Assembly: GCA_965199715.1 (NCBI GenBank)
Contig: OZ241322.1
Span: 2,208,001-2,272,000, forward strand
Source of the DNA: Vicinamibacteria bacterium
Lineage (GTDB): Bacteria; Acidobacteriota; Vicinamibacteria; Marinacidobacterales; Marinacidobacteraceae
DNA: 64,000 nt
Direction of reading: 5' to 3'
A program made the position numbers and the translations under genes. The notes beneath the pieces were generated by a model, which saw nothing but the letters and a program-made list of their open reading frames with translations, had not been told where the DNA came from and did no database searches. Positions 8,012 to 62,035 of this stretch are shown piece after piece. Every line of letters starts with the position of its first letter. The stretch's first letter is position 1.

Positions 8012-9286
8012 CTACTCGGCCGTGCTGCCGGGCACTGTGTTCCCGGCGATCACGACGCGCTCGATCGTGCGCAGCGCCGCGATCCCGTCGAGTGGGTTCT
8101 CGCGCAACACGATGAAATCGGCCCACTTGCCGGGAACTAGCTCGCCCACTTCGTCAAAATCCAGACACCGCGCCGCGTCGCGGGTGGCCGAGAGGAGGAT
8201 CTGTTCGGCGCTCAGCCCCGCCTCGGCCATCTCGGCGGTCTCGATGTGCTCGAAGTAGCCCTGGAAGCGCGCCGGCGGCCCGGTGTCGGTGCCGAACGCG
8301 ATGGTCACCCCGGCGTCGGCCACGGCCTTCACGTTGGCCATCGCGATCGGGTAGTGCTCCCGATAGCCCTGCGCGGACGGGCTCGCGGCGACCCGCGCCA
8401 TGCGCTCGGGATCCCGCAACTGGTCCAGCACCGCCGGATCGGCGTCCTTCAGGAAGAACGGGTCGTCGAAGAACTCGGGCACGTCGGCGTACACGAAGGT
8501 GGAGATCTCCCGCACCAGCGTGGGCACGTAGCAGACGCCCTTTTCCAGCATGAGGTCGAGAAACTCCTGATCGACCGGCTGGTCGCGCACGCTGTGGGCG
8601 ATCAGCCCCGACCCCAGGCGCAGCGCCTCCTTCGCGTCGTCCAGGTAGAAGATGTGGGTCGTGACCCGCTTGCCGGCCTCGGCGGCGAGCGCCATGACCC
8701 GCTCGATGGTCTCCGACGGCACCCGCTCGTTCGCGCCGAGGTTCGTGTCGATCCGCATCTTGAGGAAGTCGGCGGGCAGCGCGAGGCTCTCGGTCACGAT
8801 CGCCTCGGCCTCCTCGGGCGAGCCGCTCGAGACGATCCCCCCGCCGATCCAGATGCGGGCGCGGTCCAGCGACTCGTCCTGCTCGTCGCGCAGCGCCGCC
8901 GCCTCCGGCCCGTCGCCGCCCAGCGAGGCGATGCTCGTGACCCCGTAGCGGGCGTAGAGCGCGAGCTGCCGGACGAGGTTCTCGCGAGTGTAGTGCCCGC
9001 CTTCCAGACCCATCACGTCGCCCACGTGCCCGTGCGCGTTCACGAAGCCGGGAATGACGGTCATCCCCGAAAGGTCCGTCACCTCGGCCCCGGCGGGAAC
9101 CTCGACCGCGCCCGCCGCCGAGACCCGTCCGTCGCGCACGACGAGAACCGCGTCCTCGACGGCAGCCGCGCCGGTCCCGTCCCACAGCGTGATCCCGGTG
9201 TAGGCGGTGACTCCCTCGAGCGGGGGCGGCGGCTCGGGGCCGCAGCCGAGCAGGGCGATCAGGGCGAGGGGCAGGGAAAGGCGCAT
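8012..9286 (-). CDS. amidohydrolase family lipoprotein
   Basis: Lipobox LLGC, PGFVNAHGH, FGTDTG, G-x-L-x-PGKWADF. GGAGG RBS before ATG 9286. Confidence 0.9.
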   Translation of the reverse strand: MRLSLPLALIALLGCGPEPPPPLEGVTAYTGITLWDGTGAAAVEDAVLVVRDGRVSAAGAVEVPAGAEVTDLSGMTVIPGFVNAHGHVGDVMGLEGGHYTRENLVRQLALYARYGVTSIASLGGDGPEAAALRDEQDESLDRARIWIGGGIVSSGSPEEAEAIVTESLALPADFLKMRIDTNLGANERVPSETIERVMALAAEAGKRVTTHIFYLDDAKEALRLGSGLIAHSVRDQPVDQEFLDLMLEKGVCYVPTLVREISTFVYADVPEFFDDPFFLKDADPAVLDQLRDPERMARVAASPSAQGYREHYPIAMANVKAVADAGVTIAFGTDTGPPARFQGYFEHIETAEMAEAGLSAEQILLSATRDAARCLDFDEVGELVPGKWADFIVLRENPLDGIAALRTIERVVIAGNTVPGSTAE

Positions 9287-9353
9287 GGGAACCTCCGGGG
9301 GCGGCTGAGCATATCCGTGGGCCGTAGTGCCTCCGGCGCTTTCGCCCGGAGAA

Positions 9354-10846
9354 GGGACTGTCCGTAATTCCGTGTTTGGGGGCCATGGCATGAAGTCCGG
9401 GAGGACGAGGCGTGGCACGCGCACGACAGCTACGAGGGCCGCGCCCGCGGAAGGGGCGGATCAGCGACCGGCTGCTGGATGAGCTACTGGCGGGGGAGGA
9501 CCCGACCGAGGCCTTCCACGACGGGAAGCTGGTCGCCGAGTCGAAGAAGGCGCTCAGCGAGCGGATCCTCGGGGCCGAGATGGGCCCGCATCTGGACCGC
9601 AAGGCGGAGCGGGCGGCGGGGAACCACCGGAACGGGCACAACCGGAAGCGGGCGCTCGCGGGCGACGTGGAGCTGGATCTGGCGGCGCCCCGGGATCGCC
9701 ACGGGACGTTCGAGCCGCAACTGGTGGAGAAGTGCGCCCGGCGGCTGCCGGGGTTCGACGAACAGGCGATCTCGATGTACGGGCGGGGGATGGCGACGCG
9801 GGAGATCCAGGGCCGCGTGGAGCAGTCGTACGGGATGAAGGCGTCGGCGGAGACGATCTCCGCGGCCACCGAAACGGTAGCGGAGGATGTCCGGGAGTGG
9901 CGCTCGCGCCCGCTGGAGGCGACCTGCGCGCTGGTGTTCTTCGACGCGCTGCGGGCGAAGATCCGGGACGGGGGCCTGGTGCGGAACAAGGCGGCGTGCA
10001 TGGCCATCGGGGTGACCTGCGGGGGCCGGAAGGAGGTTCTGGGGTTCTGGATCCAGGAGACGGAGGGGGCGAAGTTCCGGCTGGGGGTGATGAACGAGCT
10101 GAAGGGCCGGGGGGTCCGGGACGTGCTGATCGCGGTGGCGGACGGGCTGAAGGGCTTCCCGGAGGCGATCGAGGCGGCGTTCCCGCAGGCGCTCGTGCCG
10201 AAGTGCGTGGCGCGCCTGATCCGGCGGTCGCCGCGCTACGCGTCGCACAAGGAACGGCGGGAGCTGGCGGCGGCGCTGAAGACGATCTGCCGCGCGGCGA
10301 CGGAGGCGGCGGCGGAAGCGGCGCTGGACGCGGTGGAGGACGGGCCGTGGGGTCGGAAGCATCCGGCGATCCCGGCGATGTGGCGGCGTGCGTGGACGCA
10401 GGCGATCCCGTTCCTCGCGTTCTCGGAGCCGATCCGGCGGGCGATCTACACGACGAACGCGATCGAGAGCCGGAACAGTTCGGTGCGGCGTGCGGTGCGG
10501 ACGCGGGGATGCTTCCCGCACGACCGTGCGGCGGCGAAGTTGATCTGCCTGGCGCTGCGGCGGGCGCAGGCGGCGTGGAAGCGGCCGCCGCGGTACTGGC
10601 GCGAGGCGCGGGCGGAGTTCGCGATCCGGTTCGGGGCGCGGTTCCAGCCGGATGACCCCTGAGCGCCCGACGGCGAGTTCCCCTCGGCCTTCCTCCGCTC
10701 CGCCGACTCAGCCCGGATCGGCCCCGGCGCACCCTCGGCGGCCCGCCGTTCCGGCCCGGCTCACCCCGCTGGTACCGTCAGACGCGCCCTGGCGACGGGG
10801 GCGAAGAAACATCTACGCCCCCAAACACGGGAATCCTGATACCTCC
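9354..10846 (+). mobile_element. IS256-family insertion sequence (probably degenerate)
   Basis: Imperfect ~30 bp terminal inverted repeats: 9354 GGGACTGTCCGTAATTCCGTGTTTGGGGGC and 10817 GCCCCCAAACACGGGAATCCTGATACCTCC, with a perfect 14 bp inner match. They flank a Mutator-type transposase. No target-site duplication. Confidence 0.9.
9412..10662 (+). CDS. IS256-family transposase (open frame, many conserved residues altered)
   Basis: PRDRHGTFEPQLV, FFDAL, DGLKGFPEAI and IYTTNAIES (DDE triad). The CxxH motif reads CVAR. Confidence 0.92.
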   Translation: MARARQLRGPRPRKGRISDRLLDELLAGEDPTEAFHDGKLVAESKKALSERILGAEMGPHLDRKAERAAGNHRNGHNRKRALAGDVELDLAAPRDRHGTFEPQLVEKCARRLPGFDEQAISMYGRGMATREIQGRVEQSYGMKASAETISAATETVAEDVREWRSRPLEATCALVFFDALRAKIRDGGLVRNKAACMAIGVTCGGRKEVLGFWIQETEGAKFRLGVMNELKGRGVRDVLIAVADGLKGFPEAIEAAFPQALVPKCVARLIRRSPRYASHKERRELAAALKTICRAATEAAAEAALDAVEDGPWGRKHPAIPAMWRRAWTQAIPFLAFSEPIRRAIYTTNAIESRNSSVRRAVRTRGCFPHDRAAAKLICLALRRAQAAWKRPPRYWREARAEFAIRFGARFQPDDP

Positions 10847-11219
10847 GTTCAAGGATCTGCCCACCCGCGCGGCGGGAGTCCGCGACGGCTACTCGCCAAG
10901 AACGCACGAACTGGGCCGACGCTACAAGGAGCGCTGTGACTTCGAATGCGGGTGCCGTGGGGTTCCGTTGACGAACGGGGACGCGAAACTCCTCGACTTG
11001 CACCACATCAACGGAGTGACGCAGGACAACAACTGGGCGAACCTCATGGCGCTATGCAAGCTGTGTCACGCGGGGCAGCCGCAGCACGGCCGCCTGCAGG
11101 CGTCCGAGGAGGACGAACGTCGGATTCGCGAGCTGCGCAACCGCAAGAACGGGAATCGCGGCGAGGACGACCAACTCGGCCCGGCGGTGAGCGGACGCGG
11201 GGTAGGCTCCGCGCCGTGA
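10847..11219 (+). pseudogene. 5'-truncated HNH endonuclease
   Basis: The frame is open from the IS end: FKDLPTRAAG...YKERCDFECGC...LHHINGVTQDNNWANLMALCKLCH. The N-terminus is absent. Confidence 0.8.
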
Positions 11220-12100
11220 CCGTCTCCCCGGCCTCCGTCCTCGGCCGCCAGAGCATGTGCGGGCGGCTCCTCGAGGTGCTCGTCATCGCGCCGCAGGGGG
11301 CCATGTGGAGCCATCCCGCGGGCTACCGGGAACTCGGCTACCTGCATCCGCCCGAACCAGACTTGGCCGCCCGGCAGCATCGTGCGCTGCGCTCCGAACT
11401 GGCCGGGTTCGGCGCCAGGGTTCGCGAAGCCGCGCCGACGGGGCTGTCCGCCGACGCGGTGTATTGCCACGACGCCTCGTTCCCGACGCCCCGGGGCATG
11501 GTGCTGATGCGCATGGGCAAGCCGGCGCGGGCCGCCGAGCCGGAGGCGCATCGGGCGCTCTACCGTGAAATGGACATTCCCGTGATCGGCGCGATCGAGG
11601 CGCCGGGGGTGATGGAGGGCGGCGATCTCGTCTGGCTGGACGAGCGCACGGTGCTCGCCGGGGAGGGTTACCGGACCGACGCGGCGGGGATCGCGCAGCT
11701 TGCCGCGTTGCTCGCTCCCGACGGCGTGGAGGTGATCGCGTCGGCGCTGCCGCACGGGGACGGGCCGGCGTGCTGCCTCCACCTGATGTCCCTCATCAGC
11801 GTGCTCGACTCGCGGACGATGGTCGCCGATCCGCGCTTTCTCGCCGTGCCCACGATGAAGCTGCTGGAGGATCGCCGGTTCCGGCTGATCCCGATCGTGG
11901 ACGAGGAGCGGGAGACCATGGCTGCGAACGTGCTCGCGCTCGGCCACGGGGAGCTTCTCGCGATCGAGGCCAACGAGCGCACGAACGAGCGGCTCGAGGG
12001 CGCCGGGTTCCGGGTCCGGACCTATCCCGGCTCGGAGATCAGCCAGAACGGTTCGGGCGGTCCCACCTGCCTCACGCGACCGATCCGGAGGGCGCAGTGA
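11216..12100 (+). CDS. amidinotransferase / dimethylarginine dimethylaminohydrolase (arginine deiminase superfamily)
   Basis: DAVYCHD, MEGGD, CLHLMS and C-terminal GGPTCLTRP with the catalytic Cys. Confidence 0.88.
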   Translation: MTVSPASVLGRQSMCGRLLEVLVIAPQGAMWSHPAGYRELGYLHPPEPDLAARQHRALRSELAGFGARVREAAPTGLSADAVYCHDASFPTPRGMVLMRMGKPARAAEPEAHRALYREMDIPVIGAIEAPGVMEGGDLVWLDERTVLAGEGYRTDAAGIAQLAALLAPDGVEVIASALPHGDGPACCLHLMSLISVLDSRTMVADPRFLAVPTMKLLEDRRFRLIPIVDEERETMAANVLALGHGELLAIEANERTNERLEGAGFRVRTYPGSEISQNGSGGPTCLTRPIRRAQ

Positions 12101-45475: not shown

Positions 45476-48261
45476 GTGCGTCTGTCGTGGAAGGAAGTGC
45501 ACGACGCTGCCGTCTGTTTTAGGGAGGAGTGGAAGGACGCAGCCTACGAGAAGGGCGAGGCCCAGAGCTTCTGGAACGACTTCTTCGAGGTCTTCGGCGT
45601 TCGGCGGCGGAGCGTCGCCCGGTACGAGCATCATGTCTCGAAGCTGGACAACACTGCCGGGTTCATCGACCTCTTCTGGCCCGGCGTGCTGCTCGTTGAA
45701 CAGAAGAGCGCGGGGCGCGACCTGAACGCGGCTCTCGACCAGGCCGGGGACTACTTCGACGCCCTGGAGGAGCACGACAAGCCGCGTTTTCTGCTCGTCA
45801 GCGACTTCCAGCGCTTCGAGCTTCACGACCTCGACGAGGACAGTGTGGTGGCCTTCGCGCTCGCCGAACTGCCCGAACACGTCCAGTCGTTCGGGTTCAT
45901 CCTTGGTGTCCAGCGCCGCACCTTTCGGGATCAGGACCCGGCCAACATCGAAGCTGCGGAGCTGGTCGGCGGGCTGCACGACGCGCTGGAGGCCGCGGGA
46001 TACGGCGGGCACGATCTCGAGAGGTTCCTCGTCCGAATCGCCTTCTGCTTGTTCGCCGACGACACTGGCGTGTTCGAGCCGCGCGACATCCTGCTCGACC
46101 TGATCGAGGAACGGACGAGCGAGGACGGGGCGGATCTCGGCCTTTGGCTCGCCCAATTGTTCGAGGTGCTCGATACGCCTGAAGACGAGCGTGCGGCGAC
46201 GCTCGACGAGGATTTGGCGCAGTTCCCGTACATCAACGGCGACCTCTTCCGGGAGCGCTTGGGATTCTTTTCGTTCAACGCCGAGATGCGTCAGAAATTA
46301 CTCGCGGCCTGTCGCTTCGATTGGTCGAACATTTCGCCTGCGATTTTCGGGGCGCTCTTTCAGTCGGTCATGGACCCCGAGGAGCGCCGGAAGAAGGGGG
46401 CGCACTACACGACCGAGAAGAACATCCTCAAGGTCATCGAGCCGCTCTTCATGGACGATCTGCGGGCCGAGTTCGAGCGGTTGCGGAAGCGGCGAGGCGG
46501 TGGGCGCCGCGCCGCCCTCCGTGAGTTTCAGGCCAAGCTCGGGCGCTTGAAGTTTCTCGATCCGGCGTGCGGATGCGGAAACTTCCTCATCATCGCCTAT
46601 CGGGAACTCCGGCTGCTGGAGATCGACGTTCTTCGCGAGATAAAGAGCGCTGGCCCTGCGCTCGATGCGAAGTGGCAGTCGGCCTTGGACGTGCATCAGT
46701 TCCACGGCATCGAGATCGGCGAGTTTCCGGCGCGCATCGCCGAGACGGCGTTGTGGATGATGGACCACATCATGAACAACCGGCTGAGCCTCGAGTTCGG
46801 CCAGAGCTTTCTGCGAATTCCGCTTGAGAGTTCACCGCGTATTCGCCACGCGGACGCCCTCGAAATCGACTGGGCCGAGGTGCTGCCGCCAGAGGAGTGC
46901 TCCTTCGTGCTCGGCAATCCGCCGTTCGGCGGCTCCAAGGTCCAGTCATCGGACCAGCGGAGACAGGTGCGCCGGATCGCGGCCTTGGGCGGGAGCGGCG
47001 GCACGCTCGACTATGTCGCCGCTTGGTTCATCCTCGCGGGTGAGTACGTCAAGTGCGGCGAGGCACGAATCGGCTTCGTTGCGACGAACTCGGTCACGCA
47101 GGGGGAGCAGGTGGCCCAGTTGTGGCCGATTCTGTTTGGGCGCGGCGGCCTCGAAATCGCGTTCGCGCACCGAACGTTCGCGTGGATGTCCGAGGCGCGC
47201 GGAGCGGCGCACGTGTACGTTGCCATCCTCGGGCTTGATCGGCGGAACTCGTCGCGGAGCAGAAAGCGCCTCTTCAGCTACGCGGATGTCAACGGCGATC
47301 CGGTGGAGAGTGCGCACTCTTCGCTCTCGCCCTACCTGTTCGATGCTGGCGGGCTGTCCGATCCGCGCTTGGTGGTGCGGGAAGAAGGCGCTCCGATCAA
47401 TGGAATGCGCCGACTGCTTTCGGGAACCCAACCGATCGACGGAGGTCAGTTCATCTTCGACACTGCTGGCCGAACGGGATTCTTGAACGTGGAACCCGGT
47501 GCTTCTCGTTATCTCCGCCCGTACGTCGGGACGCAGGAGTACCTGCATGGTGGCGAGCGTTGGATTCTCGCCCTGCAGGACGCATCGCCAACGGATTTGG
47601 GGCGACTCCCCCTAGTGCGAGCCCGTATGGCTGCCGTCCGCGAATTTCGGTCGAAGAGCAAACGAAAGAGCACGCTCGCCATTGCACACACACCGACTCG
47701 GTACAACGTCGAGGTTCTGCCGGATGCGCCGTTCCTATTGATTCCGGAGGTCAGTACGGCGCGGCGGGAGTACGTGCCCATCGGGTGGCTAGACCCGCCG
47801 ACGATCCCAAGCAGCCTAGTGAAGCTCTTGGTGAATGCCAGCCTATGTGATTTCGCGCTCCTCACCTCCGCGATGCACATGGCGTGGTTGCGTCAAATCG
47901 GCGGCCGACTCGGCAACGCCTACAGGTACTCCATCGGATTGGTGTACAACACTTTCCCGCCCCCCCCCCAATTTCGCTTGAGCAACTCTCCACCCTCGAC
48001 CCGCTCGCCCAAGCCGTGCTCGACGCCCGCGACAACCATCCGAACGAGACCCTCGCCAATCTCTACGACCCGGATCTCATGCCCGGCGACCTGCGGAAGG
48101 CCCACCGGACGCTGGACCGGGCCGTGGACCGGCTCTACCGCCCCCGCAAGTTCTCGTCCGAGCGGGAACGCGTGGAGCACCTGTTCGGGCTCTACGAGAA
48201 GATGGTCGCCCCGCTTCGGCTGAACGCCGCGAAGAAGAAACGCCGCAGGCGAAGGAAGTGA
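45476..48261 (+). CDS. MmeI-like type IIL restriction-modification enzyme, frameshifted at a poly-C tract
   Basis: IDLFWPGVLLVEQKS (nuclease), GAHYT, LDPACGCGNF (motif I) and GNPPF (motif IV). The conserved tail LANLYDPDLMP..LRKAH..LDRAVDRLY lies in the -1 frame after C10 at 47960-47969. Confidence 0.9.
47960..47969. repeat. poly-C homopolymer (C10) at the frameshift
   Basis: TTC CCG CCCCCCCCCC AATTTCG; C11 or C8 restores the frame. Confidence 0.9.
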
Positions 48262-49339: not shown

Positions 49340-50628
49340 CGGCCGAAGAGCCTTCCGGCGGGGGCCGAAAGCGCCACGGACGCGGGGTCGGGGAGCGTCA
49401 GGTCCGCGGTGAAGCGCTGGAAGCGCTCGCGGATCGCGACCTCGTCGGGCCAGGGGGAGTCCGCCTCCGCGGTCCGGCCGGCGATCGTGACGCGGGCGCG
49501 GCGCACCCGCACTCCCGGCGGGCCGAAGTTCCGCGATACCACCCGCACTCGGCCGGCCGCTTCGCGAACCGCCTCGAACTCGGCGAAGTCCGCGGCTTCG
49601 AGCGGCTGGCGCTTCAGGAAGAGCGCGACGGCGGAAGGGATGTGCATCTGCGCGGCGATCGGGGCGCGAACCGGCTCGGCCCACCCCGAGACGGTCGTCG
49701 AGAACGGATAGGTCTCGACAATTATGGAGCCGCCGTCGTCCGCGCCGAGGGCTTCGAGCGCCTCGAGCGCGGGCTGGATGGCGCGCGAGCCGGGGTGCTT
49801 CTTGGGTTGGACCCTCGGGACGGCGGCCTCGAACCGTTCCCCCGGCGAGCGCGGCGCGGCGGGCGGCTCGGGGAAGGCGGGGTCGAGGACGGCGGCCGCG
49901 CCGAGCGCCTGTCCCCACGCGCCGTAGAGCAGCTTCACCGGGTTCCCTTCGGCGAAGGCGCGGTACGGATGCGCCGGGAGCGCCGCGTCCGCCCGCCGCA
50001 GCGCGGCCGCCATCGCGTCGGGCGCAAGACGCGCCAGCCGTCCGACCGCGGCCGCCGCCGGCAGCGGCGCGGTCGCGCCCGGCGCATGGACTCCGGCCGG
50101 CTCCATGAGCGGGCCGTAGCGGTCGCGGACGAACGCCCCGACCCCGCATCCGACGGTCAGCGCGTCCAGAAGCTCGGCGAGCGGGCGGTCCAGCGCCTCG
50201 GCCGCCGCGACCGCCGCGGCGACGCACTCCGGCCCGGCGTGCAGCTCCAGCGCGTCGCCGACCATCCGGTTCCACAGGATCGCCCCCGTCAGCGGCGCCG
50301 TCGAGGCGCCCCCGACGGGGCGCCACAGCCGCGCCGGCGGCCCCGAACCCCAGTCGGGCAGGGCGCGGGGAACGCCGAGCGTCGCGACCGGGGGCGCCGC
50401 CCCGATCGCGAGCACGTCGGTCAACCAGACGAGCGCCGCCCGGCGGTCCTCGTCGCCGAAGCGCGCCGTCGCCGCCCACTCGGCGGCCGCATCCAGCCCG
50501 GCGAGCCGGGGCAGGGGCGGCCGGGCGAAGGGATCGGGAACGCTCGACGGTCCGGCGGGCGAGTGGAACCCGAAGTCGGGAGGCTCGCAGGCGAACCAGC
50601 GGCCGGGGAGCGGGTCGAGTCCGGTCAC
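49336..50628 (-). CDS. divergent MmgE/PrpD-family protein
   Basis: DALELHAG...AAVAAAE, GVHAPG, VKLLYGA, KKHPG, AQMHIP. Translationally coupled within the ABC operon. Confidence 0.6.
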   Translation of the reverse strand: MTGLDPLPGRWFACEPPDFGFHSPAGPSSVPDPFARPPLPRLAGLDAAAEWAATARFGDEDRRAALVWLTDVLAIGAAPPVATLGVPRALPDWGSGPPARLWRPVGGASTAPLTGAILWNRMVGDALELHAGPECVAAAVAAAEALDRPLAELLDALTVGCGVGAFVRDRYGPLMEPAGVHAPGATAPLPAAAAVGRLARLAPDAMAAALRRADAALPAHPYRAFAEGNPVKLLYGAWGQALGAAAVLDPAFPEPPAAPRSPGERFEAAVPRVQPKKHPGSRAIQPALEALEALGADDGGSIIVETYPFSTTVSGWAEPVRAPIAAQMHIPSAVALFLKRQPLEAADFAEFEAVREAAGRVRVVSRNFGPPGVRVRRARVTIAGRTAEADSPWPDEVAIRERFQRFTADLTLPDPASVALSAPAGRLFGR

Positions 50629-51539
50629 TCGCCGAGGATCTCGCGGCGGAAACGCGCCGTCCACCCGGCCCGAAGCTCGCCGAGCGCCGCCATGTCGAGC
50701 CGCAGGAGCTCCGAGGGCGAGGGCAGCCCGTCGGGGAGCGGCACGCCGTCGCGGGAGGGGACGAGCATCAGTTCCCGAGCGGCGACGGCCTGGGCCTCCG
50801 CCGAGAACATGTAGTCGGCGAAGGCGCGGGCGAGTTCGAGGTTCCGCGCGTCGGCGACGACCTGGACGCCCTGCGGCAGCGCCACCGCGCCCTCCTCGGG
50901 CGCGATCCAGCCGACGGGCGCCCCGCCGGCGGCCAGATGGCGGGCCTGCGACGGCAGCCCAAGGGTGAGCCACGCCTCGCCCTGCGCCACCAACTGGTTG
51001 TTCGCGGGTCCGCTGGTCCCGAACTGGAGGACGTTGCCCCGCATCGCCCGGAGCCGCTCGAATCCCGCGTCGCCATCCGTCTCGTCTCCGGTCGCGGCGC
51101 GGGCGAGAACTCCGACGGTCAGCGGGCCGAGCGTGCTCCCGAATCCGAACAGCGCGAGCCTGTCCGTGAGTGCAAGCGCGGCCCACGAACGCGGCGGATC
51201 GGGCAGCGCGTCGGTGTTGTAGAGGAAACCGACCGCCGAGGAGAACGTCGGCGGGAGCGGCCCCTCGACGAGGCCCTCGCTCCCGAGCAGCGCCGCCTCG
51301 CCGGCGTCGATCCACAACACGTCGAGCGACGGGACGCCGCGTTCGATGCGCACCCGGGCCACCTGGTCGCCCGAGCGCAGGCCGGTCGGGACGATCCGCG
51401 CCCCGGTGCGTTCCTCGAACGGCGGCGCGAACCAGGTCTGAAGGTCGGCGATCCGCCCCGGAGGCGCGGCGACCACGAGTTCCGGGCGGCCGTCGGCGCA
51501 CCCGGCGAGCAGGAAAGCGAGGAGCGCGAGACGTTTCAT
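50625..51539 (-). CDS. extracellular solute-binding lipoprotein (PotD/AfuA-like)
   Basis: Lipobox LAGC, FEERTGA, GFLYNT..P.PPRSW, PEEGAV, ARAFADYMFS.EAQ. Confidence 0.85.
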   Translation of the reverse strand: MKRLALLAFLLAGCADGRPELVVAAPPGRIADLQTWFAPPFEERTGARIVPTGLRSGDQVARVRIERGVPSLDVLWIDAGEAALLGSEGLVEGPLPPTFSSAVGFLYNTDALPDPPRSWAALALTDRLALFGFGSTLGPLTVGVLARAATGDETDGDAGFERLRAMRGNVLQFGTSGPANNQLVAQGEAWLTLGLPSQARHLAAGGAPVGWIAPEEGAVALPQGVQVVADARNLELARAFADYMFSAEAQAVAARELMLVPSRDGVPLPDGLPSPSELLRLDMAALGELRAGWTARFRREILGE

Positions 51540-52339
51540 GCGGGCCGTCCGGGGTTGCGGAGCACGCCCGCCAGCCGGTCGGCGGCGAGCGCGGTCAGCG
51601 CGGTGACGAGGATCGCCACGGTGGCGATGGCGGCGACCGTCGGGTCCTGGTAGCGGTCCACGTACTCGAAGATGGCGACCGGCAGGGTGATCGTCCGCCC
51701 GCTCACGAGCAGCAGCGACAGGTTGAAGTTGCCGAACGAGATCACGAACGCGAACACCGCTCCGGCGACGATCCCCGATCGGGCGTTCGGCAGCGTGACC
51801 AGCAGCAGCGTCTCGAGCGGCCCCGCCCCGAGGCCCCGGGCCGCCGACTCGAGCTCCGGGTCGGCCGACTCGAGCGACGCGGCGACGCTGCGGACGACCC
51901 ACGGCAGGGTGATGAGCAGGTGCGCGAACAGCAGCGGGACGAGCGTGCCGGCGAGCTGGACCCCGGTCTCGCGGGCGAACAGGCTCACCGTGGTCAGAAG
52001 GCCCGCCCCGAGCGCGAGTCCCGGCAGGCTCAGTGGCGAGAGCAGGATCCCGAGGAGCGCCGCGCTTCCCGGAAGCCGCGCCCGGGTGAGCGCGAGCGCC
52101 GCCGGAATCCCGAGAAGCAGCGCGCACGCGGTCGCGAGCAGGCCGAGCGCGAAGCTGGTCGCGATCCCCGAGAGCAGGCGCGGATGGTCGAGGAGACCCG
52201 CGTACCAGGCGAGGCTGAGGCCCCGGGGCGGGATCTCCAGCACCGCGAGCGGGCTGAGCGAATAGAGCAGCACCGCGAGCGGCGACAGCAGCAGCACCGC
52301 GTATCCGACCCCGGCGATCAGCCGCAGCGCGAGGTTCAT
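51536..52339 (-). CDS. ABC transporter permease (PotC-like)
   Basis: GLSLAWY, ESAARGLGA (EAA loop), TLPVAIF. Confidence 0.92.
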   Translation of the reverse strand: MNLALRLIAGVGYAVLLLSPLAVLLYSLSPLAVLEIPPRGLSLAWYAGLLDHPRLLSGIATSFALGLLATACALLLGIPAALALTRARLPGSAALLGILLSPLSLPGLALGAGLLTTVSLFARETGVQLAGTLVPLLFAHLLITLPWVVRSVAASLESADPELESAARGLGAGPLETLLLVTLPNARSGIVAGAVFAFVISFGNFNLSLLLVSGRTITLPVAIFEYVDRYQDPTVAAIATVAILVTALTALAADRLAGVLRNPGRPA

Positions 52340-53184
52340 GCGCCGAACCACAGCAGCGTGCGCCGGCGGCTGTACGCGGCGGCGAGCGCCATCACGCCCA
52401 TCGCTGCGACGAGCAGCAGCAGCGATGCGGCGGCCGCAGAGGGCCAGTCGAAGCTCAGCGTGAGCAGTTCCCGAATCTCCAGCACCCACGTGCGCGAGGT
52501 CGCGCCGCCGAGGAGCGCCGGGGTCGCGTAGGCCGACAGGGCGCCCACCAGCACGAAGCTGCCGCCGGCGGCGAGCCCCGGAAGCGTGAGCGGGAAGGTC
52601 ACCCGGAAGAACGCCGCCGCGGGCGAGGCGCCGAGGCCGCGCGCCGCCTCCAACAGGCGCGGCTCCACCCGGTCGAGGCTCGCGGCGAGCGCCAGCACCA
52701 TGAACGGGAGGAACGACTCGGTGAGCGCGAGCACCACCGCGGCCTCGGTGTACAGCAGCGAGCCGCGCTCGAACCCGAGCGTCTCGAGCGCCGCGCCGAG
52801 GAAGCCCTGGCGTCCGAGCAGCAGCACCCAGCCGTAGGCCCGCACCACGATGGACATGAGCAACGGCGAGACGACCAGCAGCGTCTGGATGCGCCGCGCC
52901 CGGCCGGTCGAGCGCGAGAGCAGCAGCGCCATCGGAAACCCGAGGACGAGCGTCGCCAGCGTCGTGAGCCCGGCGAGCCGCGTCGTGCGCAGCATCACCG
53001 ACGGGAACGGCTCGGCGAGAAGGCCCGCGAAGGACGCGAGCGTCGGCCCGCCCTCGAGCGGCGCGAGGGGGCCCGGCGGCAGCAGCGAGAGATGCACGAG
53101 GACGCCGATCGGAACCGCCATCGCCAGCGTGATGGCGCCGAGCGCCGGGAGCAGCAGCGCCGCTCCGAGCCGTTGCGACAGCAC
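52336..53184 (-). CDS. ABC transporter permease (PotB-like)
   Basis: SIVVRAYGW, LEAARGLGA, TPALLGG. Confidence 0.92.
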   Translation of the reverse strand: MLSQRLGAALLLPALGAITLAMAVPIGVLVHLSLLPPGPLAPLEGGPTLASFAGLLAEPFPSVMLRTTRLAGLTTLATLVLGFPMALLLSRSTGRARRIQTLLVVSPLLMSIVVRAYGWVLLLGRQGFLGAALETLGFERGSLLYTEAAVVLALTESFLPFMVLALAASLDRVEPRLLEAARGLGASPAAAFFRVTFPLTLPGLAAGGSFVLVGALSAYATPALLGGATSRTWVLEIRELLTLSFDWPSAAAASLLLLVAAMGVMALAAAYSRRRTLLWFGA

Positions 53185-53188
53185 CCGG

Positions 53189-54826
53189 TCAGGCGGTCGT
53201 GACCGCTCCCCGGCTGGCGGAGGACACGTTCTTCGCGTAGCGGGCGAGCGCCCCCGTCGCGAACGGGTTCGGCGGCTGGCGGGCCGTGCGCTCCCCCTGC
53301 ATCTCGATGTCCAGCGCCCGCGGTTCGAGGTCGATGGTGATCCGGTCGCCGTCCCGGACGAGCCCGATCGGGCCGCCGGCCGCCGCCTCGGGGCTGACGT
53401 GCCCCACCATGAACCCGTGGGTGGCGCCGCTGAAGCGCCCGTCGGTGATGAGCGCCACGCTGTCGCCGAGGCCGCGCCCGATCACCGCCGCGGTCACGCC
53501 GAGCATCTCGCGCATCCCGGGGCCGCCCTTCGGCCCCTCGTAGCGGATCACGATCACGTCGCCCGCGGCGATCCGCCCGCCCTGGACCGCCTCGAAGGCG
53601 TCCTCCTCCGAATCGAAGACTCGCGCCGGTCCGACGTGGCGGCCCCGGTCGTGTCCGGCGAGCTTCAGGATGGCGCCGTCGGGAGCGAGGCTGCCGCGCA
53701 GGAACGCGAGCCCGCCCCGGGCCTTCACCGGCCGCGCCGACGGCCGGATCACTTCCTGGCCCTCGGTCTCCTGCGCCGCGTCCGCGAGATCGAAGAGCGA
53801 CTCGCCGGTGACCGTGGGCGCGTCGGCGAGCGCGTCCAGCTCGCGCAGGCGCGCCGCGAGCAGGCGCATGCCCCCCGCCGCCTCCATCTCGGGGGCCGTG
53901 AACCGCCCTCCCGGCTTGAGGTCGGTCAGCACCGGCGTGCGGGCGCCGATCTCGTCGAGGTCGTCGAGCGTGATCGTCGTCCCCGCCTCGTGGGCGATGG
54001 CCAGCAGGTGAAGCGCGGCGTTCGTCGAGCCCGCCGTCGCCGAGACCGCGGTCCAGGCGTTCTTCACCGCGTCCCGGGTGAGGAACGTCCGGGCGGTCCG
54101 CCCCTCGCGCAGCAGGTCCATGACCCGGGCGCCGGCGGCGCGGGCGGCTCCGGCCTTGCGCGGCGAGAGCGCCGGAATCTCGTTGCCGGTCATCGGCGAG
54201 ATCCCGAGGAACGCTCCCGCGAGCGACATCGTGTTCGCGGTGAACTGCCCTCCGCAGGCGCCGGCGCCGGGGCAGGCGGCGGCCTCCAGCTCCTCCAGCT
54301 CGGCGGCGCTCATCTTCCCCGCGGCGTGGGCGCCGACCGCCTCGAACACGTCCTGGATGGTCACCCGACGGCCCCGATGGAGTCCGGGCGCGATGGAGCC
54401 GCCGTAGAACATGAGCGACGGGACGTCGAGGCGCGCCAGCGCCATCATCGTGCCGGGGATCGTCTTGTCGCAGCCGGAGATCGCCACCACCGCGTCGAGC
54501 AGGTGCCCCCGGGTGACCAGCTCGATCGAGTCGGCGACCACTTCGCGCGAGACGAGCGACGCCCGCATCCCCGACGACCCCATCGCGATCGCGTCCGAGA
54601 CCACGATCGTGTTGAACTCGAGCGGCGTGCCGCCGGCGGCCCGCACCCCGGCCTTGACCTCCTCGGCGAGTTCGCGCAGGTGGCTGTTGCAGGGAGTGAT
54701 CTCGGTCCAGGTGTTGGCGATGCCGACGAGCGGCTTCCGGATCGCCTCGGCCGAGAGCCCGGTGGCGCGGAGCATCGCCCGCGCCGGGGCGCGGCTCGGG
54801 CCGGTCTTGACTTCATCGCTGCGCAT
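53189..54826 (-). CDS. ilvD: dihydroxy-acid dehydratase
   Basis: TPCN, GCDKTIPG, GACGGQFTANTM, GSTNAALHLLAIA, YEGPKGGPGMREM, TDGRFSG. Confidence 0.97.
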   Translation of the reverse strand: MRSDEVKTGPSRAPARAMLRATGLSAEAIRKPLVGIANTWTEITPCNSHLRELAEEVKAGVRAAGGTPLEFNTIVVSDAIAMGSSGMRASLVSREVVADSIELVTRGHLLDAVVAISGCDKTIPGTMMALARLDVPSLMFYGGSIAPGLHRGRRVTIQDVFEAVGAHAAGKMSAAELEELEAAACPGAGACGGQFTANTMSLAGAFLGISPMTGNEIPALSPRKAGAARAAGARVMDLLREGRTARTFLTRDAVKNAWTAVSATAGSTNAALHLLAIAHEAGTTITLDDLDEIGARTPVLTDLKPGGRFTAPEMEAAGGMRLLAARLRELDALADAPTVTGESLFDLADAAQETEGQEVIRPSARPVKARGGLAFLRGSLAPDGAILKLAGHDRGRHVGPARVFDSEEDAFEAVQGGRIAAGDVIVIRYEGPKGGPGMREMLGVTAAVIGRGLGDSVALITDGRFSGATHGFMVGHVSPEAAAGGPIGLVRDGDRITIDLEPRALDIEMQGERTARQPPNPFATGALARYAKNVSSASRGAVTTA

Positions 54827-59200: not shown

Positions 59201-60252
59201 CGGCCCTCGCCCCTCGCGGCGAGCCGGGCGATCCGGTCGCAGAGTTCGGCGAAGGACATCCCGGCGACGGCGGCCGACTGCGGGAGCAGGCTCCGCGTGG
59301 TCATGCCGGGCAGCGTGTTGGCCTCGAGGACCATCGGCCGGCCCTCGGCGTCCATCCGGAAGTCCACCCGCGAGAAGTGCCGCAGCGCGAGCGCCCGGTG
59401 GCACATCACCGCGAGCTCCCGAAGCTCGCGCTCGAGCGACTCGGGAACGTCCGCCGGGAAGATCTCCTCGGCGAGGCCCGGCGTGTACTTGGCGTGGTAG
59501 TCGAAAAGACCCTCGCGCATGACGATCTCGCCGACGCCGAGCGCCTCCGGCTCGCCGCCCTCGGTCTCGAGCACGCCGACCGTGAACTCGCGGCCGGGAA
59601 GGAGCGCCTCGATGAGCACCACCGTGTCGTGGCGGCGCGCTTCGGCCACGGCGGCCCGCACGTCCTCGAACCCGGTCGCCTGGCGCAGGCCCACCGAGGA
59701 GCCGACCCGGGACGGCTTCACGATCACCGTCTCGCCGAGCGCCGCGATTTCGGCCCGCCGGTCCTCGGGCCGCTGCCGGTGCAGCCGCTCGAAGGGCGCC
59801 GTCGGAATCCCCGCGCCCCGCAGCACGTGCTTGGCGGCGGCCTTCTCCATGGCGAGCGAGCTTCCGAGCACGCCGCTGCCGGTGTAGCGGACGCCGCTGA
59901 GCTCCAGCACCGCCTGCACCCGGCCGCCCTCGCCGTCGAGGCCGTGGAGCACGAGGAACGCCGCGTCGGCCTCGTGCATTTCGCCGAGCCGCAGCAGCCC
60001 CGGAACGTCCTCGCGTTCGCGGAGTTCGGCCAGCTCCTCGTCCGAGGGGGGCTCGCGGGCCACGCGCTGCGCGAGCCGGGCGCCCTCCTGTTCCGGATCC
60101 AGCGGGCCGCGCACCGTGTCCACCGCGACCACGTCGTGCCCGGAGAGGCGCAGCGCCCGCACCACCTCGCCGGCGCCCGCGAGCGCCACGTCGCGCTCCG
60201 GCGTGGACCCCCCGGTGAGAACCGTGATCTTCAGGGGCGGCGCGGAGATCAT
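59197..60252 (-). CDS. ddl: D-alanine--D-alanine ligase
   Basis: GGSTPERDV, LHGLDGEGG, KPSRVGSSVG, FDYHAKY, RVDFR, EANTLPGMT..SLLP. Confidence 0.93.
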   Translation of the reverse strand: MISAPPLKITVLTGGSTPERDVALAGAGEVVRALRLSGHDVVAVDTVRGPLDPEQEGARLAQRVAREPPSDEELAELREREDVPGLLRLGEMHEADAAFLVLHGLDGEGGRVQAVLELSGVRYTGSGVLGSSLAMEKAAAKHVLRGAGIPTAPFERLHRQRPEDRRAEIAALGETVIVKPSRVGSSVGLRQATGFEDVRAAVAEARRHDTVVLIEALLPGREFTVGVLETEGGEPEALGVGEIVMREGLFDYHAKYTPGLAEEIFPADVPESLERELRELAVMCHRALALRHFSRVDFRMDAEGRPMVLEANTLPGMTTRSLLPQSAAVAGMSFAELCDRIARLAARGEGR

Positions 60253-61679
60253 TGAGTCAGGGCGATTCGCGCGCTTGAGCCTACCGACTTCGCCGGGGCG
60301 AGCTGCGCCGAGGCGAGGAGGACGACCGATCCGACCGCCATGCCGACGAGCGCCGGGGGGACCACGAGACCGCGTCCCTCGAGCAGGAGGTGCGACGAGA
60401 GCCCGGCGGCCATGGCGAGCGCCGCGCCCCGCGCCGGGACTTCGGGCAGCATCAGGCCGAGCGTGAGGACCGGCCCGAGCCCCGAGGCGAACGCGCCGAA
60501 GGCGAGCGTCCCGAGGAACGCGATGAGCGCGCCGCCGCCGAGGTGGGCCGCGGCGATCCCGAGCGCGACGAGCCCCACGGCGAGGCACGCCGCCCGCGCC
60601 GCGAGCAGGCCGGAGAACCCCCCGCCCCCGAACGCCCGCGGCAGGTCCCGGACGAGCGCGGCGGCGGCGAGGTTCATGAACGTGTCGGCGGTCGAGAGGA
60701 TGGCCGCGAGCACGGCCGCGGCGACGAGGCCGACGAGCGCCGGCGGGGCCTCGAGGATGCGCAGCACGAGGAACGAGGCCTCGTCCGGGTGCCCCAGCGC
60801 GTGGAGCCGGCCTTCGGCGGCGAGGACCATGGCTCCGAGGCCGAGCCCGATCCAGACCAGCAGGCTGAGCGCGTGCGCCCCGCCGAGAACCATGGGCAGG
60901 AACCGGAGCGCGTCGGGGTTCCGGAGCATGAGGAACTTGTGCAGCGAGTGCGGCTGCCCGAACACGCCGATCGAGAACAGCAGCATCATCCCGAACGCGG
61001 TCCCCGGGCTCCAGACGCCCACCGGGTCCAGCCGCTCGGGCGCAAGGCGAGCGAGCGCGTCCAGCGCCTCGCCGGGCCCGCCGAGCCGGCCGAGCACGAA
61101 CGCGAACGCGGCGACCGCGCCTATGGCCATCAGGATTCCCTGGAACACGTCGGTGTCCACCGACGCGATCATCCCGCCGAGCAGCGAATAGGCCAGTAGC
61201 AGCGAGAGGCCCAGCGCGAGGCTGGCCCCGGTCCCGAGGTCGGGAAAGGCGAAGCGCAGCGCGACCGAGAGCGCCGCGATCTGGAGGCCGAGGTAGAGGA
61301 CGCTCCCGAGCAGGATCGCGACCGCGGCGAAGCCGCCCGGAAGCCGGCTGTCGAAGCGGAACCGGAGCGCCTCGGGGATCGTGAAGGCGCCGCTCGCCTC
61401 GGCGATGAGGGCCAGCCGCCGGCCCACCGTCCGGCAGACGAGCGCGGCGGTGAACCCGATCGGGACCACGAGGAAGAGCGCGCCGGCGCCGACCTCGTGC
61501 ATCAGCCCGGCGCCGCCGACGAAGACGAACCCGCTGAACGAGGACGCGGCGGCGCCGAGCCCGGCGCGGAACGCCCCGAGCCGCCGCCCAGCGGCGAAGA
61601 AGTCGATCGCGCTGCGGGTCCGCCGGGCCGCCCAGGCCCCGATCGCGAGCGTGATCGCGAGCGTCAGGACCGGGATCAC
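60249..61679 (-). CDS. sodium:solute symporter (SSS family)
   Basis: DFFAAGR, ASSFSG, GGMIASVDTDVFQG, GQPH, AAILSTAD and many TM helices. Confidence 0.9.
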   Translation of the reverse strand: MIPVLTLAITLAIGAWAARRTRSAIDFFAAGRRLGAFRAGLGAAASSFSGFVFVGGAGLMHEVGAGALFLVVPIGFTAALVCRTVGRRLALIAEASGAFTIPEALRFRFDSRLPGGFAAVAILLGSVLYLGLQIAALSVALRFAFPDLGTGASLALGLSLLLAYSLLGGMIASVDTDVFQGILMAIGAVAAFAFVLGRLGGPGEALDALARLAPERLDPVGVWSPGTAFGMMLLFSIGVFGQPHSLHKFLMLRNPDALRFLPMVLGGAHALSLLVWIGLGLGAMVLAAEGRLHALGHPDEASFLVLRILEAPPALVGLVAAAVLAAILSTADTFMNLAAAALVRDLPRAFGGGGFSGLLAARAACLAVGLVALGIAAAHLGGGALIAFLGTLAFGAFASGLGPVLTLGLMLPEVPARGAALAMAAGLSSHLLLEGRGLVVPPALVGMAVGSVVLLASAQLAPAKSVGSSARIALTQ

Positions 61680-62035
61680 TCGCGGCCCTCCCGCAGCTTC
61701 TTCAGAACCTCCGGGTCCACCGGCTCGAAGGCGAGCGCGAACCCGGTCGCCGTGACGAGGAGCGGGACGGCGGAGACTCCCAGCAGCAGCCCGAGGAAGC
61801 CCGTTTCCGGCGAGAGCGCCGCGAAGAGGCCGCCCAGGAGGAGCGACGCGAAGAGCGCGGCGCCGAGAAGCCGGTCGCCCCTCCGGCGCGGCGTCCCGCT
61901 CGCCCACAGCGCGGCGACGAGGACCGCGAACAGGACCGCGTGGAGCGCCCCCGCGCCGGGCAGGAGCAGCGCCGCGAGCACCGCCGCGACCAGCGAGAGG
62001 GCGACGACGGCGGCGTGGTTACGATTCGGGCCCAT
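61676..62035 (-). CDS. small membrane protein coupled to the SSS symporter
   Basis: Four hydrophobic segments; its stop overlaps the symporter GTG. Start uncertain. Confidence 0.6.
   Translation of the reverse strand: MGPNRNHAAVVALSLVAAVLAALLLPGAGALHAVLFAVLVAALWASGTPRRRGDRLLGAALFASLLLGGLFAALSPETGFLGLLLGVSAVPLLVTATGFALAFEPVDPEVLKKLREGRE

Follow-up and report, generated by a model that had tools for sequence, protein, structure and literature searches.

A stretch of 64,000 nucleotides from a Vicinamibacteria bacterium (contig OZ241322.1, positions 2,208,001 to 2,272,000; hereafter the window, to which all coordinates refer) contains an insertion sequence (IS) of the IS256 family whose transposase gene is open from end to end while many of its conserved residues are replaced through A:T to G:C changes. 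The element is probably an old, immobile relic in which selection has been relaxed, so that a GC-directed bias of the whole genome became visible in its protein. The host genome comprises 2.66 Mb in two contigs with 71.5% G+C, and among public sequencing runs its likely source carries the label "sponge metagenome". The positions of the element, its parts and its neighbours are collected in Table 1.

The transposase open reading frame (ORF, positions 9412-10662) matches PF00872 (Transposase_mut) over profile positions 6-378 of 379 (E 2.3e-100, 336.6 bits) and the structure of the ISCth4 transposase TnpA (6xg8) over residues 26-410 (E 6e-79). A search of 5.8 billion proteins returned nearest proteins with 60-69% identity, the closest known one being 69% identical by BLASTP; the few named homologs carry the label Gemmatimonadetes. 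For the protein alignment 49 of the 120 listed homologs were used, which were picked across the list in a non-random manner. They are 59-68% identical to our transposase, and their divergence from one another (down to 64%) is comparable to their divergence from it. The DDE triad is kept, with D178, D244 and E352 aligning with D175, D241 and E348 of ISCth4, and the three residues are conserved in 49, 48 and 49 of the 49 homologs, respectively. The CxxH motif typical of the family is found altered: C265 is kept and H268 is replaced by Arg (codon CGC). This position is occupied by His in all 49 homologs, in all 13 relatives used for codon analysis and in 117 of 139 family representatives, while Arg occurs in 7 of the 139. 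W223, which is present in 49/49 homologs and in 129/134 representatives, is likewise replaced by Arg, and Y293C, L354R and H367C are further departures. An excerpt of PMC7780238 places the CxxH motif of ISCth4 (C262/H265) in the active site and states that the Hermes counterpart of its His touches the scissile phosphate; in an excerpt of PMC5225508, the exchange H307A of Muta1, which affects the counterpart of the same His, costs 99.5% of activity. Judged from its residues, the transposase of the window would have lost its activity.

Departures of this kind are far more frequent in our transposase than in its homologs. At the 209 columns that are at least 90% conserved it shows 35 departures seen in no other sequence (median of the other sequences 5, maximum 11), and at the 126 invariant columns it shows 20 (median 0, maximum 5). 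A sequence-only reading of this DNA had named 16 replaced residues as examples. Twelve of these lie at positions where at least 86% of the 49 homologs hold the residue claimed to be ancestral, including W223, H268, Y172, Y293 and V243 (each 49/49). Three lie at mixed positions, namely C108 (Trp in 22 homologs, Tyr in 20, His in 6), C196 (Tyr 26, His 22) and H317 (Tyr 27, Phe 22), and the Tyr to His change read from the string NGHN was an error, since all 49 homologs have His at this position (H76), which is thus the family state. Two caveats apply to the observation: Y172C is not confined to our element but is shared by its probable sister L012, and the states V243A and Y176F are found in the ISCth4 enzyme, which is active and has a solved structure.

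The direction of the changes was determined at the codon level by comparison with 13 of 30 matching loci from related genomes, which are full-length and at least 45% identical; a match to the element was present in 25 of 61 genomes. The near-duplicates L034, L035 and L036 were left out of the pools for the direction counts, which were made column by column on extant rather than ancestral sequences. At sites identical in 10 other lineages the element carries 22 AT>GC changes, 1 GC>AT, 1 AT>TA and 2 GC>CG (binomial p 6e-6), which confirms the one-directional pattern that the sequence-only reading had described, and 19 of the 22 fall on codon position 2. A pool of eight ingroup lineages gave 35 AT>GC versus 8 GC>AT changes overall and 28 versus 1 at position 2, compared with 14 versus 24 for L012 (Fisher p 8e-5 versus our element). 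The GC contents at the three codon positions (GC1, GC2 and GC3) amount to 0.709, 0.526 and 0.949, respectively, versus 0.579-0.689, 0.355-0.449 and 0.719-0.908 in the 13 relatives, and the fraction of Gly, Ala, Arg and Pro (GARP) is 0.416 versus 0.219-0.337 in 10 comparison lineages. Among the private changes on the coding strand, G>C was also seen more often than C>G (18 versus 2), which may reflect a host preference for C-ending codons.

Mutation in most bacteria is biased towards AT, and directional mutation pressure acts on amino acid composition. As host control we used six genes (2,897 codons) with orthologs in all three sampled congeners (G001-G003). They were drawn from 16 candidate ORFs at positions 1-36000 of the window; of the others, one is the IS itself, four have orthologs in two congeners and five have none in the compared regions. 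A change was counted as private to this genome where the three congeners agree. At third positions 22 of 31 AT sites have changed to GC (0.710) versus 50 of 1,286 GC sites to AT (0.039), and this per-site bias of 18:1 predicts the GC3 that is observed. Second positions of the host genes are balanced, with 49 AT>GC versus 43 GC>AT changes. Position 2 of the IS (28 versus 1) is therefore unlike position 2 of the host (p 6e-6), but its skew does not exceed that of third positions in the host, and its AT sites were converted at a lower rate (30/162 versus 22/31, p 2e-8). The second positions of the IS thus act like the least constrained sites of the host, and no extra mutational input is needed to account for them.

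The element has the composition of its host. The 1,162 gene-like ORFs of the genome have mean GC1, GC2 and GC3 values of 0.727, 0.518 and 0.918 and a mean GARP fraction of 0.395, and among them our ORF lies at percentiles 36, 59, 85 and 66, respectively. The 3' non-coding part of the element is close to its flanks as well, which have a GC content of 0.705-0.713. The relative abundances (rho) of the dinucleotides CG, TG, TA and GA are 1.24, 0.80, 0.32 and 1.41 in the ORF versus 1.28, 0.76, 0.38 and 1.49 in the genome; for the whole genome CA shares the value of TG and TC that of GA, and AT stands at 1.24. Of the causes proposed in the sequence-only reading, a strongly GC-directed spectrum that acts generally is thus supported by the bias at host third positions and by the host-typical composition of the ORF. 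This bias may be one of mutation or one of fixation (biased gene conversion, selection). Loss of mismatch repair, which had also been considered, is not supported, as MutS (PF00488) is represented by two matches over the cut-off (263 and 84 bits) and MutL (PF01119) by one (93 bits). A single marginal match to NucS_C (25.2 bits versus a cut-off of 24) lies inside a 695-aa open frame and was not taken as a NucS gene.

Several lines of evidence bear on the age and mobility of the element. It is the only full copy in the genome. A second IS256-like relic of about 430 bp (G000:C1:1921439-1921873; loci L002, L007 and L008) lies about 300 kb away, is 72% identical in nucleotides to our element over 314 bp and consists of pieces in two frames with one TAG. 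It was considered as an independent neutral reporter and rejected, being too short and wrecked (30-49% amino acid identity, two frames) to polarise changes. In all three congeners the site is empty, the flanking genes being 107-241 bp apart versus about 2 kb here, and these genes share 73-82% DNA identity and 65-84% protein identity with their counterparts in the congeners. The insertion thus took place after the split from the congeners, and this split is itself old. One of the congeners, G003, holds eight matches (e.g. L013, L035) of another IS256 lineage with 57-58% amino acid identity to our transposase. A comparison of two of these copies gave 99.6% identity over 1,486 bp, and this lineage is accordingly presumed to be active and IS256 elements appear to be alive in the genus, with only relics in the genome studied here.

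The ends of the element are altered too. Its terminal inverted repeats pair at 20 of 26 positions (a second alignment of the ends gave 19 matches over 23 positions) and are homologous to the element ends in L011, L034 and L012. The heptamer CTGTCAG is present at 6/6 tips of these three relatives; in our element the left tip has a single changed base (A>C at the sixth base) and the right tip has three. By analogy with the relatives, the element may in fact extend some 4 nt beyond each of these tips. Target duplications of 8-9 bp are present at L011, L034 and L012, while no matching 8-9-mer was seen beside either choice of tips of our element (all flanks read by eye). Public data likewise gave no sign of movement: joints or indels were absent from 4/4 public runs compared across the locus, and no variants at 10% or more were found inside the element in public reads. 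Contig X5 from another study agrees over 2,601 bases without a difference, although X5 is possibly itself the source of this DNA, and 46 of 48 raw reads from X12 are at least 99% alike to the locus. One G>A at position 10888, outside the element, was seen in one RNA-library contig.

Observed directly were which way the changes run and where they fall, a bias that extends across the host, an ORF composition typical of that host, the lack of further full copies, the vacant site in the congeners and the mutations in the inverted-repeat tips. From these we infer the following order of events. An IS256-family element would have entered the lineage after its split from the three sampled congeners and would then have ceased transposing, its transposase function being under hardly any selection, if at all, since then. 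The host bias, a strong genome-wide AT>GC bias of a CpG-favouring and GA/TC-sparing flavour, could under relaxed constraint reach codon positions 1 and 2 of the ORF. There it would have turned Val into Ala, Tyr into Cys, His into Arg, Trp into Arg and Leu into Ser or Pro, even at family-invariant and active-site positions, and would thereby have brought the base, amino acid and dinucleotide composition of the ORF to the host average.

An unbroken frame is compatible with such a history. The ORF is indeed free of stops and frameshifts, with 416 codons open from the GTG, as the sequence-only reading had stated, and its argument that the frame survives AT to GC changes holds for transitions: none of the 2,803 A>G or T>C changes possible in the coding sequences of the relatives creates a stop, while T>G changes do so in about 2% of cases. 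For the 64 private changes observed, 0.56 stops are expected versus 2.28 under a flat spectrum. The genome furthermore contains 2,429 ORFs of at least 400 aa that are not gene-like, and the other frames of the IS region hold ORFs of 345-617 aa. The frame is thus stop-free because AT>GC transitions make no stops and DNA of this kind contains few of them, and with spurious long ORFs so abundant, an open frame means little here.

Nevertheless, a number of observations weigh against a relic that drifts without any constraint. No frameshift or internal indel was found in 392 aligned codons in spite of at least 64 private substitutions (the 5' and 3' non-coding parts can hardly be aligned to those of the relatives and gave no counts of indels or directions). 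With the usual ratio of indels to substitutions, a rough reckoning leads to several indels expected under pure neutrality. That none occurred may point to a frame still kept by selection, or else to indels arising very infrequently. Also retained are the DDE triad, a usable GTG start and a GGAGG that resembles a ribosome-binding site (RBS). AT sites at codon position 2 were converted at about half the rate in invariant columns (7/58, 12%) compared with other columns (23/104, 22%), so that residual constraint is possible. The amino acid branch of our transposase is just modestly longer than that of L012 (0.40 versus 0.31). RNA-library contigs (X7, X8) span the ORF with a low depth (~2-7) similar to that of its flanks, which leaves room for expression.

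The conversions are also distributed unevenly. Among residues, Val (10/21), His (4/6) and Tyr (3/7) were converted often, and Phe (0/13), Ile (1/21), Asn (0/6), Met (0/6), Asp (1/10) and Glu (1/18) rarely, the last six together at 3/74. Sites in the IS at which the change creates a CpG were converted in 18/74 cases versus 10/138 at the others (odds ratio 4.1, p 0.001), a preference that is not seen at host positions 1 and 2 (18/576 versus 36/1,192); host third positions offer just 29 usable AT sites for this comparison and hence no power. By context, CAC sites were converted in 12/29 cases and GA-context sites in 4/94. Exchangeability does not explain the unevenness among residues, and context explains it better. 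As the dinucleotide values of the ORF now match those of the genome, we read this context as the signature of the host, a reading based on how abundant the dinucleotides are at equilibrium and not on neutral substitutions seen to occur. Because of these two oddities, the uneven conversions and the missing indels, residual selection stays in play as a minority reading, and a specific process keeps a small chance.

The first of these readings holds that the ORF is still under selection, either as a weakly active transposase in which slightly deleterious GC-ward replacements were fixed by the strong bias or as an exapted host protein. The preserved frame, catalytic triad and start region would fit, as would the RNA-library coverage and the somewhat lower conversion of invariant columns. 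In addition, change has been greatest at third codon positions (GC3 0.949 versus 0.72-0.91 in the relatives), and the locus is identical in samples from more than one study. We nevertheless regard continuing selection as unlikely. The site is empty in 3/3 congeners, so cross-species conservation is lacking, and domestication was given low weight for this reason. The His of the CxxH motif and W223 are gone, and both inverted-repeat tips are mutated. The gap between invariant and variable columns is non-significant (p 0.14), whereas L012 spares its invariant columns fully (0/51, p 0.014 versus our element). The coverage of positions 8800-11400 by the metatranscriptomic contigs X7 and X8 could be due to transcription or to carried-over DNA and is no proof of transcription, and chance open frames are plentiful in this genome.

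In a leave-one-out comparison across the family, for which 56 of 151 sequences were used (380-470 aa long and mutually distant), our transposase ranks just 14th of 56 for departures at family-conserved columns (7/43; median 2.5), which counts against the relic reading. Of its seven departures, six can each be reached by one GC-ward step, and no other high-ranking sequence has such a proportion. Similar states recur in other members. P0226 (36% identical to our transposase, GARP 0.42, open ORF of 428 aa) carries CxxR, Y>C and V>A, and its first catalytic Asp is replaced by Gly; judged by these replacements it is a more advanced case of missense-only decay. P0202 and P0241 combine H>R or W>R with Y>C, and the GARP-rich members with the same states are less than 50% identical to one another. 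Over the 56 representatives the GARP fraction correlates with the number of departures (Spearman 0.39, p 0.003, a p value that overstates the case as the sequences are non-independent). In hosts rich in GC, transposase ORFs seem regularly to decay by missense changes only.

A second alternative is the targeted process that the sequence-only reading had put forward, namely a hypermutation of mobile DNA from A:T to G:C that resembles repeat-induced point mutation (RIP) or is of deaminase type, with a preference for C-A-C/G-T-G. The extreme direction (22:1), substitutions without indels, and the enrichment of CAC and CpG-creating sites that is missing at host positions 1 and 2 are in line with it. 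A targeted process should exceed the host background, yet GC, GC3, GARP and dinucleotide values of the element equal those of the host and do not go beyond them, and host third positions are more biased (18:1) and were converted at a higher per-site rate. Strand bias is absent, with 11/87 A and 17/125 T of the coding strand changed (p 1.0), and a single-copy target offers no repeat to recognise. Furthermore, the favoured and spared contexts match the dinucleotides that are over- and under-represented throughout the genome, and unrelated members of the family that are rich in GARP show identical states. To our knowledge no natural defence based on a DNA adenine deaminase has been described. Taken together, we hold targeted hypermutation to be very improbable, and the proposal was not supported. 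Only a slight chance is likewise given to a context-specific DNA-editing or repair-linked process of this sponge-associated lineage that would prefer this element or foreign DNA and silence it by missense changes with the frame unbroken. As a further candidate, the target of a diversity-generating retroelement was rejected since A and T of the coding strand were both changed (p 1.0); a reverse transcriptase search was not made.

GC-biased gene conversion among IS copies, also suggested by the sequence-only reading, is hardly credible and effectively refuted for the present genome, although past, since-lost copies are possible: biased conversion is argued to act in bacteria in an excerpt of PMC4450053, but here there is one copy, the only related DNA is the wreck of about 430 bp that at 72% identity is too diverged as a partner, and a family copy serving as the template would bring family residues back and not remove them.

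Table 1 Features of the IS256-family element and its neighbours (coordinates in the window)
Feature	Position	Strand	Remarks
Whole IS256-family element, tip to tip	9358..10842	+	1,485 bp; best terminal inverted-repeat pair
Left terminal inverted repeat	9358..9383	+	tip CTGTCCG versus CTGTCAG in relatives
GGAGG, ribosome-binding-site-like motif (by eye)	9400..9404	+	7 nt upstream of the GTG start
Transposase ORF (P0001)	9412..10662	+	416 aa, GTG start, open frame; PF00872
3' non-coding part of the element	10663..10842	+	180 bp, GC 0.733
Right terminal inverted repeat	10817..10842	-	tip (reverse complement) GTATCAG versus CTGTCAG in relatives
Left neighbour, amidohydrolase gene (host)	8012..9424	-	orthologs in G001-G003, 80-83% amino acid identity
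Right neighbour, arginine-deiminase/amidinotransferase-like gene (host)	10946..12100	+	G001 homology starts at 11232

Compared with L012, L011 and L034, the element lacks 73-117 bp of length in its 3' non-coding part, which can hardly be aligned to theirs. The real start of the amidohydrolase gene to the left is probably an ATG near 9286 (by eye). Directly to the right of the element an HNH-endonuclease-like piece was noticed at 10848-11219 (+), with the pattern CxxC...HH...N...CxxCH seen by eye and a score under the Pfam cut-off (HNH_3, 22.4 bits versus 24.8). Its open frame extends back into the end of the IS, and there is no good start outside the IS. Between the same two genes of G001 (gap 107 bp) the HNH-like stretch is absent as well. 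Possibly a small HNH gene was already there and the IS inserted into it or next to it, or the IS and the HNH piece may have arrived together. Elsewhere in the window the GC content dips to 0.627 at 46001-48000, and the AT skew is strongly positive, with 0.20 at 50001-54000 and 0.35 at 60001-62000.

The element is probably an ordinary relic, and the notion that it reveals a new defence system is not supported. Its significance lies elsewhere. Where a genome is very rich in GC, a transposase ORF that is intact and of full length does not show the element to be active, since decay there proceeds by missense changes, the prevailing AT>GC changes being unable to create stops, and annotation pipelines will label such relics "IS256 family transposase". 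The relic can also serve as a small natural reporter of the substitution bias of its host at sites that are free of codon-usage selection. It shows this bias acting on non-synonymous positions, CpG-favouring and GA/TC-sparing, and so bears on whether high GC content in bacteria arises by mutation, selection or biased gene conversion.

Among known systems, the element resembles the IS256 family (Mutator-superfamily DDE transposases such as that of ISCth4) in its single PF00872 ORF, the DDE triad, its length of about 1.5 kb and its homologous inverted repeats. It is unlike the family in that CxxR stands in place of CxxH, that it has lost conserved residues such as W223 and Y293, and that it is a single copy with mutated inverted-repeat tips, no target duplication seen and no sign of mobility. 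RIP of fungi acts on duplicated DNA, changes C:G to T:A, lowers GC below the genome level and creates stops. Our element shares with RIP targets that a mobile element has received many one-directional transitions in a dinucleotide context and without indels, and it differs from them by its single copy, the opposite direction, a composition at the host average and the lack of stops. A further parallel is the amelioration of foreign DNA, in which acquired DNA comes to adopt the base composition of its host, a concept reportedly due to Lawrence and Ochman, together with the directional mutation pressure ascribed to Sueoka, under which GC pressure is said to enrich Gly, Ala, Arg and Pro. As in amelioration, the ORF now matches the GC1, GC2 and GC3 values, the GARP fraction and the dinucleotide signature of its host. 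Unlike amelioration at silent sites, the drift has run through second codon positions and through family-invariant active-site residues, and such non-synonymous drift at invariant residues needs relaxed selection and not silent-site amelioration alone.

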